Origin: Escherichia coli O127:H6 str. E2348/69
GTDB taxonomy: Bacteria; Pseudomonadota; Gammaproteobacteria; Enterobacterales; Enterobacteriaceae
Assembly: GCF_000026545.1 (NCBI RefSeq)
Contig: NC_011601.1
DNA: 64,000 nucleotides
Direction: 5' to 3' (one strand)
Shown here: in pieces, positions 1 to 64,000 of the stretch
How the letters are laid out: every line of letters starts with the position of its first letter
How positions within the stretch are numbered: position 1 is the first letter of the stretch
Notes under the pieces: model-generated
Told to the model about the DNA's origin: nothing
Seen by the model: the letters and a program-made list of their open reading frames with translations, nothing else
The model's database searches: none
Position numbers and translations under genes: made by a program

Positions 1-112
1 TTCCGGAAAGCTTTCAGCTTTGAGCCAGTTATTAAAACCCCTTTTGATTTGTTAAAACACCTTGCGGTCTGGCAACTGCAAGTGTCAAACAAGAAATCAA
101 AAGGGGGTCCCA

Positions 113-41900: not shown

Positions 41901-42146
41901 ACCCATACAATGTCTTGCCTCCTTGCAAAGAAGAGACTAACATCCGAATTGCTTAGGTTCGAACGTAGGCCTCAGGTTGATAGAAATATCGCCTGGGGCT
42001 TTTGTCCATCTGGAACCTCGCGAATGCTTAACGCCAGACAGCCTCAAGCACCCAACGCCATTCTATACCTGTTAATTTTCCCTGCGATGTTCACCTTTAA
42101 ATGCCGGAATGCTGCTCGCAAAATAAAAACGCCCCATCATTTCTGA
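40872..42146 (+). CDS. DDE-type (rve/integrase core) transposase with N-terminal HTH, IS481-family-like
   Basis: HTH (ISAASEAFGVSCRTLYWWRQ), DDE residues in GMDAIE / ITDNGKEF / ERFNRTLRE, and C-terminal KRPHKALALMTPVEY. The last ~80 codons of the 424-aa ORF may be read-through into flanking DNA. Confidence 0.7.
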   Translation: MQMQHLMVGYPKYYQTADYALRLSVMADIATMRMKALHFWDKHGISAASEAFGVSCRTLYWWRQLLNKEGPEGLIPHSKAPLVRRKKHWHPDVLKEIRRLRTELPNLGKEQIFVRLKPWCEQRYLACPSVSTIGRMIAAAHDKMRMIPVRLGSRGKALLVKKRSAKPRRPKHYRPVKTGELIGMDAIELRMGELRRYVITMIDECSNYALALAVPSLNSDIVNHFFSRAARLFPVGISQIITDNGKEFLGNFDKTLQEAAIKHLWTYPYTPKMNAICERFNRTLREQFIEFNEILLFEDLALFNQKLAEYLVLYNSKRPHKALALMTPVEYILKENKNCNMWWTHTMSCLLAKKRLTSELLRFERRPQVDRNIAWGFCPSGTSRMLNARQPQAPNAILYLLIFPAMFTFKCRNAARKIKTPHHF

Positions 42147-46494: not shown

Positions 46495-46809
46495 GCGTTG
46501 TTATGTTCCAGTAAGCAAAGCTGTTTCTGCGCCCTGTCAGCGCCCATAAAACAGAAGAGAAGGTAAGGTTAACGGGGTGAACGGTGTGGATTAAAGACGG
46601 GATAGCGATAACTAATAACCAAATCGACTAACCTGTTTTAGCAATAGTCTTTAACAACAAAATAGATTAACCAACCCAATGAAAAACAAATGAATATTGC
46701 CCATCAATAAGATAAATCAGCGATTTTGCGCAACAAAGTCGTTTTAGATAATGCGAAAAAACAGCCTTTCCGGTACTCTACGGCGGTTTTATCGTCATGT
46801 AGAGAAATT

Positions 46810-54993: not shown

Positions 54994-55009
54994 TGTGATC
55001 GTAATCACA
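54994..55009. promoter_or_regulatory. Consensus CRP-binding site in the ygcW / yqcE divergent intergenic region
   Basis: TGTGAtcgtaaTCACA is a perfect match to the TGTGA-N6-TCACA CRP core. Confidence 0.6.
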
Positions 55010-55186
55010 GTGTGATGTTCGTATTGTCAAATAATTTAAAAAAGCAGAAGCGTGATTACTCTCACACAACACCTCTGCTTTCCATGTTATTTCTTATTGC
55101 AATTACTAGAGACCTGAGAAAAGTAATCCACCTGAAAGGGCGGCTTACTTTTCTCTTTTTTTGTCTATTACAAATGGGAATACGAT

Positions 55187-57969: not shown

Positions 57970-58088
57970 GTGAGATAAACAGTGCCGGGTAGATGATTAA
58001 TCCCGGCATATTCACGTTTCCACCACAAAATACCGGGTAACCACTGCTGAATATTGTTCTCTCCTGAGTAGCGTTTATGCTTTAATTG

Positions 58089-58102
58089 CTAAACCGATTT
58101 AA
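58089..58102. promoter_or_regulatory. Candidate ScrR (LacI-family) operator upstream of scrK
   Basis: ctaaaccgatttaa matches the perfect palindromes upstream of scrY (ctaaaccggtttag) at 12 of 14 positions. Confidence 0.35.
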
Positions 58103-58133
58103 TTAGTTTAGCAATTAGTATATTGGAGCCTTT

Positions 58134-59054
58134 ATGAGCGCAAGAGTATGGGTACTCGGTGATGCGGTTGTTGATTTATTACCCGAAAGCCAGGGGAGAC
58201 TACTACAGTGTCCTGGCGGGGCGCCTGCTAATGTTGCAGTCGGTATCGCAAGGCTGGGGGGGAAAAGTGCCTTTATTGGCAAAGTTGGCGATGATCCTTT
58301 CGGTCGCTTTATGTATCAGACACTGAGTACAGAAAATGTTGATACACGTTATATGTCTCTTGATCCTCAACAACGCACCTCAATTGTGGCTGTAGGACTT
58401 GATGAGCAAGGAGAAAGAAACTTTACCTTTATGGTACGCCCAAGTGCCGATCTTTTTTTACAACCTGATGACCTTCCTACATTTGGGCCGGGTGAATGGC
58501 TCCATCTTTGTTCCATTGCGCTCAGTGCAGAACCTTCCCGAAGTACCGCATTTCTGGCTATGGAGAAAATACGTCAGGCTGGCGGAAACATCAGTTTTGA
58601 TCCCAATATCCGCAGCGATCTCTGGCAGAGTGAAGCGCTATTAAGAAAATACCTTGATCGCGCGCTTTCGCTGGCGAATATCGCTAAATTGTCCGAAGAA
58701 GAGTTGCTATTCATCAGTGGCGAAAGCCAGGTTCAGCAAGGCGCATATTCATTAGTACAACGTTATTCGTTGACTTTATTGCTTATCACACAAGGAAAAA
58801 ATGGCGTACTTGTGTATTTTCAGGGGCAGTTTATCCACTATCCCGCCAAACCTGTTTCTGTCGTCGATACGACCGGGGCAGGAGATGCTTTTGTCGCTGG
58901 ATTACTTGCAGGTCTGGCTGATTCTGGAATACCAACAAATACCAGACAGCTTGAACGAATCATTGCACAAGCTCAGATTTGTGGTGCTCTGGCGACCACG
59001 GCTAAAGGCGCGATGACCGCCTTACCCCGACAACACGATCTCCCTTCACAATAG
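58134..59054 (+). CDS. scrK: Fructokinase (PfkB family) ScrK
   Basis: 306 aa; VLGDAVVDLLPE...LLQCPGGAPANVAVG...DTTGAGDAFVAGLLAGL is highly similar to enterobacterial ScrK. Confidence 0.85.
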   Translation: MSARVWVLGDAVVDLLPESQGRLLQCPGGAPANVAVGIARLGGKSAFIGKVGDDPFGRFMYQTLSTENVDTRYMSLDPQQRTSIVAVGLDEQGERNFTFMVRPSADLFLQPDDLPTFGPGEWLHLCSIALSAEPSRSTAFLAMEKIRQAGGNISFDPNIRSDLWQSEALLRKYLDRALSLANIAKLSEEELLFISGESQVQQGAYSLVQRYSLTLLLITQGKNGVLVYFQGQFIHYPAKPVSVVDTTGAGDAFVAGLLAGLADSGIPTNTRQLERIIAQAQICGALATTAKGAMTALPRQHDLPSQ

Positions 59055-59085
59055 TGATCCTGCTGTTGTATCTGTAACCCGATTT

Positions 59086-59101
59086 GTCGTGCCTGTCACA
59101 T
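59086..59101. promoter_or_regulatory. Candidate CRP site upstream of scrY
   Basis: TGTCGtgcctgTCACA has one perfect half-site and one imperfect half-site with correct spacing. Confidence 0.3.
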
Positions 59102-59104
59102 TTA

Positions 59105-59118
59105 CTAAATCGGTTTAG
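59105..59118. promoter_or_regulatory. Candidate ScrR operator (near-perfect palindrome) upstream of scrY
   Basis: ctaaatcggtttag, a 14-bp palindrome with one mismatch. Confidence 0.4.
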
Positions 59119-59163
59119 CGAAAATAATTGCTCTGGCTAAAAAGTCAGCTTTATTATCAACAC

Positions 59164-59177
59164 CTAAACCGGTTTAG
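59164..59177. promoter_or_regulatory. Candidate ScrR operator (perfect 14-bp palindrome) upstream of scrY
   Basis: ctaaaccggtttag is perfectly self-complementary and lies about 45 bp upstream of the scrY start. Confidence 0.45.
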
Positions 59178-59197
59178 CATTTTAGCAATTTTTATAA

Positions 59198-60739
<1,542 letters not shown>

Positions 60740-60799: not shown

Positions 60800-62170
60800 A
60801 TGGATTTCGATAAAATCGCCCAATCGTTGCTTCCTTTATTAGGTGGTAAGGAGAACATCGCCAGTGCAGCACATTGCGCCACTCGCCTACGGCTGGTACT
60901 GGTTGACGACACACTTGCCGATCAACATGCCATTGGCCAGATTGATGGAGTGAAAGGTTGTTTTCGTAATTCAGGGCAAATGCAAATCATCTTTGGCACC
61001 GGCGTGGTTAATAAAGTCTATGCTGCCTTTATTCAGGTTGCAGGTATTAGCGAATCCAGTAAAGCAGATACCGCTCGACTCGCCGCTCAAAAACTCAATC
61101 CTTTTCAGCGAATAGCACGGCTACTTTCTAATATTTTTGTCCCCATCATTCCAGCCATTGTTGCTTCTGGTTTATTAATGGGGCTCCTGGGAATGGTGAA
61201 AACATATGGCTGGGTGAATGCCGATAATGCGATTTATATCCTGCTGGATATGTGCAGTTCAGCCGCATTTATTATTCTCCCCATCCTTATTGGCTTTACT
61301 GCTGCTCGTGAATTTGGTGGAAATCCTTATCTTGGCGCGACATTAGGAGGGATTCTGACTCACCCGGCACTCACAAATGCCTGGGGCGTTGCTGCGGGAT
61401 TTCAGACAATGAACTTCTTCGGTTTTGAAATCGCCATGATTGGCTATCAGGGAACGGTTTTCCCCGTGCTTCTGGCAGTATGGTTTATGAGCATAGTGGA
61501 AAAACAGTTACGCAGGTTTATCCCTGATGCTCTGGATCTCATTCTGACGCCATTTCTGACTGTCGTCATTTCTGGCTTTATCGCTCTTTTGATTATTGGT
61601 CCGGCAGGACGAGCGTTAGGTGACGGTATCTCTTTCGTTCTCAGCACGCTGATTGCACACGCAGGCTGGTTAGCAGGGTTGTTATTCGGCGGGCTATATT
61701 CAGCGATTGTTATTACGGGTATTCATCATAGCTTCCACGCAATTGAAGCAGGACTTTTAGGTAACCCTGCAATCGGTGTTAATTTCCTGCTGCCTATTTG
61801 GGCAATGGCAAACGTTGCGCAAGGAGGTGCATGTCTGGCGGTATGGTTTAAAACCAAAGATACAAAAATTAAAGCAATCACCCTACCCTCGGCCTTTTCC
61901 GCAATGTTAGGGATTACTGAAGCCGCTATTTTTGGTATCAACCTTCGTTTTGTTAAACCTTTTATTGCGGCCTTAATTGGTGGCGCTGCCGGCGGTGCCT
62001 GGGTTGTCTCTGTTCACGTTTATATGACTGCCGTTGGTCTGACCGCAATACCCGGCATGGCAATCGTTCAGCCAACATCGTTGGTTAATTATATTATTGG
62101 AATGGTGATTGCTTTCGCTGTCGCTTTTAGCCTCTCTTTATTACTCAAATACAAAACGGACGAGGAGTAA
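60800..62170 (+). CDS. scrA: PTS sucrose-specific EIIBC component ScrA (456 aa)
   Basis: N-terminal EIIB cysteine motif (AAHCATRLR) followed by a glucose-family EIIC membrane domain. Confidence 0.9.
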   Translation: MDFDKIAQSLLPLLGGKENIASAAHCATRLRLVLVDDTLADQHAIGQIDGVKGCFRNSGQMQIIFGTGVVNKVYAAFIQVAGISESSKADTARLAAQKLNPFQRIARLLSNIFVPIIPAIVASGLLMGLLGMVKTYGWVNADNAIYILLDMCSSAAFIILPILIGFTAAREFGGNPYLGATLGGILTHPALTNAWGVAAGFQTMNFFGFEIAMIGYQGTVFPVLLAVWFMSIVEKQLRRFIPDALDLILTPFLTVVISGFIALLIIGPAGRALGDGISFVLSTLIAHAGWLAGLLFGGLYSAIVITGIHHSFHAIEAGLLGNPAIGVNFLLPIWAMANVAQGGACLAVWFKTKDTKIKAITLPSAFSAMLGITEAAIFGINLRFVKPFIAALIGGAAGGAWVVSVHVYMTAVGLTAIPGMAIVQPTSLVNYIIGMVIAFAVAFSLSLLLKYKTDEE

Positions 62171-63579
62171 TGTCGATGCCTTCACAAATGCCCGCGATTT
62201 TACAGGCAGTGATGAAAGGTCAGTCCAAAGCACTGGCAGATGCCCACTATCCTTGTTGGCATCTCGCTCCAGTCACCGGACTAATGAACGATCCAAATGG
62301 CTTTTGTTGGTCTGGAGGCCGCTATCATCTGTTTTATCAATGGAATCCACTGGCTTGTGATCATAAGTACAAATGTTGGGGGCACTGGAGTTCGACGGAT
62401 TTATTGCACTGGCAGCATGAACCATTAGCGCTAATGCCCGATAAAGAGTACGACCGTAATGGTTGTTACTCAGGAAGCGCGGTTAATAATCAGGGCGTTC
62501 TCACACTTTGCTATACCGGTAATGTTAAGTTTGATGATGGCAGCAGAACGGCATGGCAATGCCTGGCCACCGAAAATAACCAGGGCGGGTTTGATAAACT
62601 AGGCCCTGTCATACCGTTACCTGATGGTTACACCGGACATGTTCGTGATCCAAAAGTCTGGAAGCACAACAGCCAATGGTACATGGTGCTTGGCGCGCAA
62701 GATAAAGAGAAACGGGGGAAAGTGCTGCTGTATTCCTCTGTCGATCTCTATACCTGGTCTTTTCATGGAGAAATTGCTGGTAACGGTCTGAATGAAATAG
62801 ATAACGCAGGATACATGTGGGAATGTCCTGATCTTTTCGCCCTTGATGGTGAATACATTCTCCTCTGTTGCCCCCAGGGAATGGTGCGCGAACATGAGCG
62901 CTATCTGAATACTTATCCCTGCGCCTGGCTACATGGACAGTTTGATTACGAGACAGGCAAATTTACGCATGGCGCTTTCTCAGAGCTGGATGCGGGATTT
63001 GAATTCTATGCACCACAGACGATGGAAGCCCCGGACGGGCGACGATTGCTGGTCGGCTGGATGGGGGTTCCTGATGGCGAAGAGATGTTGCAGCCAACCA
63101 GAAAGCATCATTGGCAGCATCAAATGACCTGTTTTCGCGAACTCTCATTCCAGAAGGGAAAATTGTTTCAGATGCCAATCAGGGAACTCGCGCAACTGCG
63201 TGAAGCTGAACACTTCTGGCAAGGAAAAGCGGATCATGCGCCGCATGTCGAAATTGAACGCCTGGAAATGGACATCATTCCGTCGGGTGAGCTGTATCTG
63301 AATTTTGGCAATGCGCTGGCACTGCATCTTAATGACGATGGTATTCAACTACAGAGGAGAAGCCTTGCAGGGCAAGAGAAACTAACTCGTTACTGGCGAG
63401 GAAGCGTAACGTCACTGAAGATTCTCTGTGACAGTTCCAGCGTAGAGATATTCATCAATAATGGTGAAGGTGTAATGAGTAATCGTTATTTTCCCCATCA
63501 TCCAGCTTCGCTGATATTACAGGGTGAGTCTGACGTCACGTTACGCTACTGGTCGCTACGCGCCTGCATGGTAGAATGA
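62170..63579 (+). CDS. scrB: Sucrose-6-phosphate hydrolase (GH32) ScrB
   Basis: 469-aa ORF with GH32 motifs (NDPNG, RDPKV, EC); start overlaps the scrA stop. Confidence 0.9.
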
Positions 63580-63604: not shown

Positions 63605-64000
63605 GTGAGAAAAACCAAACGCGTTACTATTAAAGACATTGCTGAACTGGCGGGAGTGTCGAAAGCAACCGCCAGTCTGGTTCTCAATGGTCGTGGCAAA
63701 GAGTTACGTGTTGCGCAGGAAACGCGTGAGCGTGTGCTGAGTATTGCCCAACAGCAGCATTATCAGCCCAGCATTCATGCCCGCTCATTACGGGACAACC
63801 GCAGTCATACCATTGGTCTCGTCGTTCCTGAAATCACTAACTACGGATTTGCAGTATTTTCCCATGAACTGGAAACATTGTGTCGGGAAGCGGGCGTCCA
63901 GCTCCTCATATCCTGTACTGATGAAAATCCTTCACAGGAAACAATGGTGGTGAACAATATGATTGCCCGCCAGGTTGATGGGTTAATCGTCGCATCCAGT
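63605..64000 (+). CDS. scrR: LacI-family sucrose operon repressor ScrR, 5' part (continues beyond the window)
   Basis: GTG start; [29 protein letters not shown]... is a classic LacI-type HTH. Truncated by the window end. Confidence 0.8.

Follow-up and report, generated by a model that had tools for sequence, protein, structure and literature searches.

The window analysed here, a stretch of 64,000 nucleotides, is 100% identical to the chromosome of Escherichia coli O127:H6 E2348/69, and the locus in the E2348/69 record (L001) is collinear with it, with 0 mismatches over 13,101 bases. It carries the scrK-scrYAB-scrR sucrose PTS regulon, which sits between ygcE and queE (Table 1). Most of this region is present in about 18% of complete E. 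coli genomes (987/5426). The E. coli chromosomal scr genes described earlier (Trevino-Quintanilla 2007; Stephens et al. 2024, PMC11251922) represent the same locus, which adjoins queE in place of the CRISPR2.2/iap repeats (PMC11251922). The RefSeq label for scrK is 'aminoimidazole riboside kinase'.

The gene set and order (scrK, scrYAB, scrR) are the same as in the scr systems of the plasmid pUR400 and of Klebsiella pneumoniae, and in these, too, a CRP site lies upstream and scrK is preceded by a second promoter under ScrR control. The E2348/69 system differs from them in being a chromosomal copy of an EPEC strain, and its operators are predicted from the sequence. In addition, E. coli lacks the GC-rich hairpin that comes after scrK in most other genera.

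Table 1. Genes, predicted operators and promoter elements of the scr region in the window.
Feature	Coordinates	Strand	Description
ygcE	56491-57969		Gene before scrK
Candidate extended -10 of scrK	58076-58086	+	TATGC-TTTAAT, a T[A/G]TG-n-TT[T/A]AAT box; without the usual A at -11
OK, predicted scrK operator	58089-58102	.	CTAAACCGATTTAA (ctaaaccgatttaa); two mismatches, both in the right half; 16-mer with flanks 58088-58103
Auxiliary half-site GTTTAGC	58106-58112	+	Perfect half-site 3 nt after OK; forms a 35-bp near-palindrome with the left half-site
scrK, fructokinase	58134-59054	+	Fructokinase match NCBIfam NF006957 at 511 bits (cut-off 450)
CRP-like box	59085-59100	.	TGTCG-TGCCTG-TCACA; 22-mer 59082-59103; ends 4 nt before O1, with its centre near -71.5 relative to the predicted TSS
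O1, predicted scrY operator	59105-59118	.	CTAAATCGGTTTAG (ctaaatcggtttag); one mismatch; predicted -59 to -46
Predicted scrY -35	59128-59133	+	TTGCTC; TTGCnn conserved across genera; begins 9-10 nt after O1
Predicted scrY -10	59152-59157	+	TATTAT; aligns with TATGAT/TAGTAT/TAACAT of other genera; conserved form TAnnAT
O2, predicted scrY operator	59164-59177	.	Perfect palindrome CTAAACCGGTTTAG (ctaaaccggtttag); predicted +1 to +14, over the transcription start
Extra TTTAGC after O2	59181-59186	+	From an apparent 8-bp tandem duplication, TTTAGCAT followed by TTTAGCAA (59173-59188)
scrY, sucrose porin (LamB family)	59222-60739	+	NCBIfam maltoporin subfamily match; RefSeq 'carbohydrate porin'
scrA, sucrose-specific PTS EIIBC	60800-62170	+	TIGR01996 match at 650 bits (cut-off 559)
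scrB, sucrose-6-phosphate hydrolase	62170-63579	+	TIGR01322 match at 548 bits (cut-off 356)
scrR, LacI-family repressor	63605-64000	+	First 132 codons; gene continues past the window end, then queE

Three conserved palindromes upstream of scrK and scrY

The initial annotation of this region had proposed three related 14-bp palindromes in the promoter regions of scrK and scrY. Their coordinates proved exact, with 2, 1 and 0 mismatches for OK, O1 and O2, respectively, and so did their placement, OK lying 45 nt before the ATG of scrK and O1 and O2 lying 117 and 58 nt before that of scrY. The underlying form, CTAAAC-CG-GTTTAG, is an even-length palindrome, and its central CG is intact in O1, O2 and OK. 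All three therefore have the shape of LacI-family operators, which are even palindromes centred on CG and about 14-20 bp long.

In the 64-kb window, OK, O1 and O2 are the only sites with up to two mismatches to the perfect palindrome, compared with 0.07 expected, and 0 of 100 dinucleotide-preserving shuffles of the window gave three such sites. The chance test was set at this threshold, the version with up to three mismatches being too weak by itself: it returns four sites in the window against 1.59 expected, a number also reached in 10 of 100 shuffles. The fourth site, at 46628, is probably a chance match. For the three palindromes themselves, a chance origin is excluded.

The comparative set was assembled by searching one genome per species with ScrY, yielding 80 loci from Enterobacterales and Aeromonas. 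Synteny determined by tblastn shows the order scrK-Y-A-B-R in nearly all Enterobacterales loci, while the order in Aeromonas is scrY-scrK-scrA-scrB-scrR; scrR itself was found in nearly all orthologous loci. Across the 80 loci, 206 sites with up to two mismatches occur in the 35 kb of DNA upstream of scrK and scrY, versus a single site in the remaining 850 kb. The sites are thus restricted to the regulon's promoters and retained in orthologous loci, as is looked for in genuine operators. In 62 Enterobacterales loci, OK has a positional orthologue, located 31-51 nt upstream of the ATG of scrK. For scrY, 59 loci have a site orthologous to O1 about 116 nt upstream of the ATG, and 64 loci have one orthologous to O2, perfect or with one mismatch, about 57 nt upstream of it. 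In 53 of 54 Enterobacterales loci, O1 and O2 are spaced 58-60 bp apart; in Aeromonas the spacing is 31 bp. Despite the rearranged gene order in Aeromonas, two sites still precede scrY and one precedes scrK; the sites therefore travel with the promoters. Taken across species, the operator consensus extends to the 16-mer GCTAAACCGGTTTAGC. The sites exist, are non-random, are confined to scr promoters and are positionally conserved together with the regulator.

The scrY promoter and its CRP-like box

The anatomy of the scrY promoter was derived from an alignment of 23 genera-level representatives and from per-position counts. The -35 and -10 elements are separated by a spacer of 18 nt, and O2 begins 5-7 nt after the -10 element in 51 of 53 distinct contexts. 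We infer the exact start sites of scrY and scrK; for scrY, position 59164 is predicted from the -10 element, and this start underlies the relative positions of O2, O1 and the CRP-like box in Table 1; for scrK, a start at about 58090-58094 is predicted. This predicted geometry would fit repression, with O2 over the predicted start, O1 upstream of the -35 element, and OK directly following the conserved -10-like box of scrK. The proposed scrY promoter was not among the calls of the consensus promoter scan. It returned a weak TTTACT-16-AATAAT pair overlapping O1, which was rejected because the cross-species alignment conserves a different -35 and -10. A terminator-like match at 59133-59148 falls between the scrY -35 and -10 elements, is not conserved, and was treated as incidental.

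A CRP-like site had also been annotated next to the operators, at 59086-59101. The box is indeed present and positionally conserved, whereas its coordinates are off by one base from those annotated and its core, with two mismatches, is at chance level. Specifically, 8 of 10 positions match TGTGA-N6-TCACA, and the window contains 29 matches of equal quality versus 26.1 expected, which by sequence alone is not above chance. The box could accordingly be a fortuitous match, with catabolite control acting indirectly, for example through inducer exclusion only, and the CRP site was previously judged to be poorly conserved (PMC11251922). The comparison made here, with a larger sample, leads to a different assessment. 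The TG and TCACA parts are each 98% conserved, the end of the box is fixed 4 nt before O1, and the core has no more than two mismatches in 39 of 42 distinct contexts. The conservation in orthologous promoters expected of a CRP site is thus present, with a TG...TCACA core that is positionally fixed in the 42 contexts, and conservation of the box in Enterobacterales far exceeds what PMC11251922 concluded. Its predicted centre at -71.5 suits a class I activator, for which the positions are -61.5, -71.5, -82.5 and -92.5, although this agreement holds only if transcription starts at 59164 as predicted. Furthermore, an upstream CRP site and catabolite repression were reported for pUR400 by Jahreis & Lengeler 1993 (per PMC11251922). 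A chance match is consequently considered rather unlikely.

In 21 of 60 distinct contexts, which belong to the clade of E. coli, Citrobacter, Enterobacter and Lelliottia, O2 is followed by the extra TTTAGC with a constant offset of 3 nt. It probably reflects clade-specific descent. After O1, an extra TTTAGC was found in 0 of 51 contexts.

The composite element upstream of scrK

For scrK, the consensus promoter scan gave no convincing sigma-70 match. A -10-like box is conserved directly upstream of OK in Escherichia, Kluyvera, Klebsiella, Citrobacter, Enterobacter, Raoultella, Edwardsiella and Leclercia, and this T[A/G]TG-n-TT[T/A]AAT sequence is a candidate for the extended -10 element of scrK. 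The right half of OK itself (TTTAAT/TTTAAC) was rejected as a -10 element, as the last position is C in many genera.

The weaker copy annotated upstream of scrK is present as a 14-mer with two mismatches, but it is not an isolated site. An inverted-repeat search placed it within a 35-bp near-palindrome at 58083-58117 with 17-nt arms that are 88% complementary. The alignment reveals an extra GTTTAGC 3-4 nt downstream of the scrK operator in many genera. In 65 Enterobacterales loci, all operators ending in ...GTTTAA (33/33) are accompanied by an extra TTTAGC 4-7 nt downstream, versus only 6 of the 32 operators ending in ...GTTTAG. By chance, TTTAGC would be expected in 0.7% of 22-mers. The association between a weakened right half and the extra TTTAGC has a Fisher p of 9e-13 (shared ancestry not corrected for).

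Several readings of the extra half-site may be considered, namely a compensating second ScrR register, a stem in the 5' mRNA, or plain descent. It is tentatively proposed that the scrK operator might be a three-half-site element, in which the GTTTAGC about one helical turn downstream would offer ScrR an overlapping second register, or lengthen its footprint so as to cover the scrK start. If true, this would represent a compensatory operator architecture, not described for ScrR as far as the literature examined shows. Overlapping LacI-family sites are common, being reported upstream of 110 operons (Ravcheev et al. 2014, PMC4052901). As with overlapping or adjacent LacI-family sites such as those of GntR at gntKU (PMC4052901), the scrK element lends itself to a reading as a pair of imperfect sites that overlap and have their AT-rich inner halves in common. 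It differs in its centre-to-centre distance of 9-10 bp, compared with a peak at about 13 bp (PMC4052901), and in the second scrK site having no central CG. As far as its text shows, PMC11251922 contains no discussion of the scrK operator or its auxiliary half-site.

The possibility of an mRNA stem can be extended to all three palindromes, which would then act as RNA hairpins in 5' leaders, stabilising mRNA or causing transcriptional attenuation, and not as protein-binding DNA. Provided that the start sites are as predicted, both O2 and the scrK element would fall within transcripts, and the left half-site of the scrK operator can pair with the extra GTTTAGC to form a 7-bp stem of -7.8 kcal/mol. 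Folding is nevertheless no better than in shuffled controls, the z-scores being +0.68 (scrY leader), -1.26 (scrK leader) and -0.90 (O1). Moreover, O1 lies upstream of the promoter and so cannot be part of the scrY transcript, there is no room for a viable loop in a 14-mer whose centre is CG, and Rfam contains no family match in the region. An RNA role in place of DNA binding is barely credible on this evidence.

Repression of scrK may be weak, because OK has two mismatches in one half and the corresponding site of a close E. coli-like relative, the MAG L065, has three. OK is the weakest scrK site among the genera examined, reading GATTTAA where K. pneumoniae/pUR400 have GGTTTAA, and the clustering of its mismatches in the right half would be compatible with a decayed relic, leaving scrK constitutive or under read-through control only. 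Its position is nonetheless kept in the 62 loci mentioned above, and its mismatches spare the left half and the central CG. The occurrence of the auxiliary GTTTAGC with every weakened right half suggests selection to retain binding, and scrKp is reported to be repressed by ScrR (PMC4521459). A non-functional relic is therefore regarded as unlikely. An operator that is weak or decaying in E. coli constitutes the most credible partial alternative to the operator reading, and the pattern of half-sites argues against simple decay.

ScrR and the proposed sucrose switch

The locus encodes a cognate LacI-family regulator for the promoters in question, with scrR starting at 63605. The full ScrR protein (335 aa, from L001) is assigned to the TIGR02417 subfamily, 'D-fructose-responsive transcription factor', with 463 bits against a curated cut-off of 390. 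Overall, ScrR is 85% identical between E2348/69 and K. pneumoniae. The first 75 residues, comprising the helix-turn-helix and hinge, are nearly identical, and residues 3-45 (helix-turn-helix) as well as a hinge stretch are identical. The DNA-recognition residues thus match those of a characterised ScrR, and the DNA specificity is therefore expected to be the same as that of the studied K. pneumoniae and pUR400 repressors. In K. pneumoniae (L027), the corresponding sites CTAAACCGGTTTAA, TTAAACCGGTTTAG and CTAAACCGGTTTAG are located at -42, -116 and -58, compared with -45, -117 and -58 in E2348/69.

The alignment of ScrR with LacI reaches only to about residue 326 of 360, so ScrR is probably devoid of the tetramerisation helix. 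Because this helix is probably missing and the 59-bp spacing of O1 and O2 is non-integral, we infer that two dimers would bind independently at these sites rather than forming a DNA loop.

The nearest solved relatives of ScrR are structures of Cra (FruR), a paralogous global fructose repressor placed in the same NCBIfam subfamily, and each of the two proteins responds to an effector derived from fructose. It is thus conceivable that the palindromes are bound mainly by Cra and not by ScrR. Cra boxes are likewise palindromes with a central CG and AAAC/GTTT arms, with the consensus GCTGAAACGTTTCAGC. Relative to this consensus, the half-site register of the ScrR site is displaced by a single base, and GCTAAACCGGTTTAGC and the Cra box, aligned at their centres, differ at 4 of 16 positions. 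None of O1, O2 and OK qualifies as a Cra box, each having 5-6 mismatches over the 16 positions of the Cra consensus, versus 1-3 to the ScrR consensus. In contrast to a global regulator such as Cra, the ScrR sites are confined to scr promoters, and the motif strictly co-occurs with scrR-containing loci, the single site in 850 kb of other DNA aside. In gamma-proteobacteria, ScrR and FruR form sister groups (PMC4052901). Deletion of cra lowers scrAB expression in E. aerogenes (PMC4521459), whereas published genetics assign the repression to ScrR (PMC11251922, PMC4521459). Binding mainly by Cra is hence judged very improbable.

Published work on related systems agrees with assigning the palindromes to ScrR. 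The two scrY operators of pUR400 were identified with mutational evidence by Cowan 1991 and Jahreis & Lengeler 1993 (per PMC11251922). They consist of two 14-bp inverted repeats in the same relative positions as O1 and O2 (per PMC11251922), the downstream one overlapping the expected start site (PMC11251922). Both scrKp and the scrA-side promoter are ScrR-repressed (PMC4521459). Induction of the pUR400 system by D-fructose/fructose-1-phosphate was reported by Jahreis & Lengeler 1993 (per PMC11251922). The E. coli scrY promoter has been aligned with those of seven other species, and both operators were marked as highly conserved (Stephens 2024, PMC11251922, Fig. 5). A text search of the literature for the operator sequence returned unrelated papers only, and the supplements of a LacI-family comparative-genomics paper list ScrR regulogs with no site sequences. 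A Salmonella plasmid match was rejected as a representative of pUR400, as it carries a raf-type cluster with fructokinase and porin genes and not scr.

Based on these observations, the following switch is proposed, to which we assign a probability of roughly 0.88. The LacI-family dimer ScrR, whose gene closes the scr cluster, would bind all three palindromes. On O2, over the predicted scrY start, it would block RNA polymerase, while on O1, between the -35 element and the CRP box, it may also hinder CRP-dependent activation. At scrK, it would occupy the weaker operator just downstream of the -10-like box, with putative backing from the extra half-site. Following sucrose uptake and splitting, fructose or fructose-1-phosphate is expected to bind ScrR and cause its release, and full expression would also require cAMP-CRP. 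For this locus, ScrR binding, the inducers and catabolite repression are carried over from published work on the orthologous systems of pUR400 and K. pneumoniae.

The initial annotation had read the palindromes as candidate ScrR operators, which is supported by the presence of the cognate scrR, the promoter-only conservation and, by analogy, the published pUR400 operators. Its suggestion of dual sucrose and catabolite control is likewise in line with work on the orthologous system. Control by ScrR and CRP is the published model, since PMC11251922 reports the operators together with the CRP site and PMC4521459 reports ScrR repression at both promoters. The interpretation is already known, E. 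coli included, and describes a textbook-style switch of a PTS sucrose regulon, here also in the EPEC prototype strain, with no new biology. Mildly new are only two points, namely that the scrK operator is composite and that the CRP box is positionally conserved. The operator call made from the bare sequence is thereby validated, and the exact coordinates are useful for engineering sucrose use or reporters in E2348/69.

The scrK product and the scrK-scrY junction

In RefSeq/PGAP, scrK is named 'aminoimidazole riboside kinase'. With the fructokinase equivalog NF006957, whose cut-off is 450 bits, the gene reaches 511 bits, and it is located in the scr regulon; the product name in the public record is misleading. 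In a cross-genus alignment, a GGCCGC...GCGGCC stem follows scrK in most other genera, directly 5' of the CRP-like site (CRP box), while this GC-rich hairpin is absent in E. coli (59055-59084). A scan of the window likewise found no terminator-like site at these positions, between scrK and the CRP box. It is therefore plausible that transcription of scrK continues into scrYAB in E. coli. Such read-through has been speculated for a deletion construct (PMC11251922).

Operator arrangement in other genera

The Aeromonas loci (L075-L081) have the gene order scrY-scrK-scrA-scrB-scrR. The pair of scrY operators in these loci has a spacing of 31 bp (about 3 helical turns), compared with about 59 bp in Enterobacterales, and a GATAAT -10-like box lies downstream of the scrK operator, not upstream. 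Thus, the promoter architecture differs, while the motif is the same.

In four Pantoea loci (L030, L034, L035, L046), an extra GTTTAAC/GTTTAGC half-site precedes the scrK operator at a distance of 8 nt, instead of following it, as exemplified by cggtttaacgctatag-CTAAAACGGTTTAG. This half-site may represent an auxiliary site in a different placement.

The Brenneria and Prodigiosinella loci (L059, L061, L063, L064, L066, L068) contain scrKYABR. No operator with up to 3 mismatches was found before scrK in these six loci, and scrY is preceded only by the variant AAAAACCGGTTTAG, or by none. The repressor ScrR of these loci differs in the recognition region, which has VSKSTA instead of VSKATA. Operator and repressor specificity may have shifted in these two genera.

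CRP cores and RNA families elsewhere in the window

The intergenic region of the divergent genes ygcW and yqcE contains two CRP cores spaced 57 bp apart, one being the perfect consensus TGTGATCGTAATCACA and the other deviating by 1 mismatch. This pair suggests that the two sugar-acid genes, which are uncharacterised, are under strong control by cAMP-CRP. Among the RNA families matched, sok indicates a chromosomal locus of the hok/sok toxin-antitoxin type, as predicted from the Rfam model. The second match is the Hfq-binding sRNA STnc490.

Positions of features in the window and in the Aeromonas loci
Feature	Position	Strand	Remark
STnc490	1-103	+	Rfam match, 108 bits; 5' end truncated by window start
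sok antitoxin RNA	41904-42053	-	Rfam match, 105 bits (gathering score 59)
CRP core, ygcW/yqcE	54994-55009		
CRP core, ygcW/yqcE	55051-55066		
scrK	58134-59054		
scrY operators, Aeromonas	about 110 and 80 nt before scrY		
scrK operator, Aeromonas	about 81-84 nt before scrK
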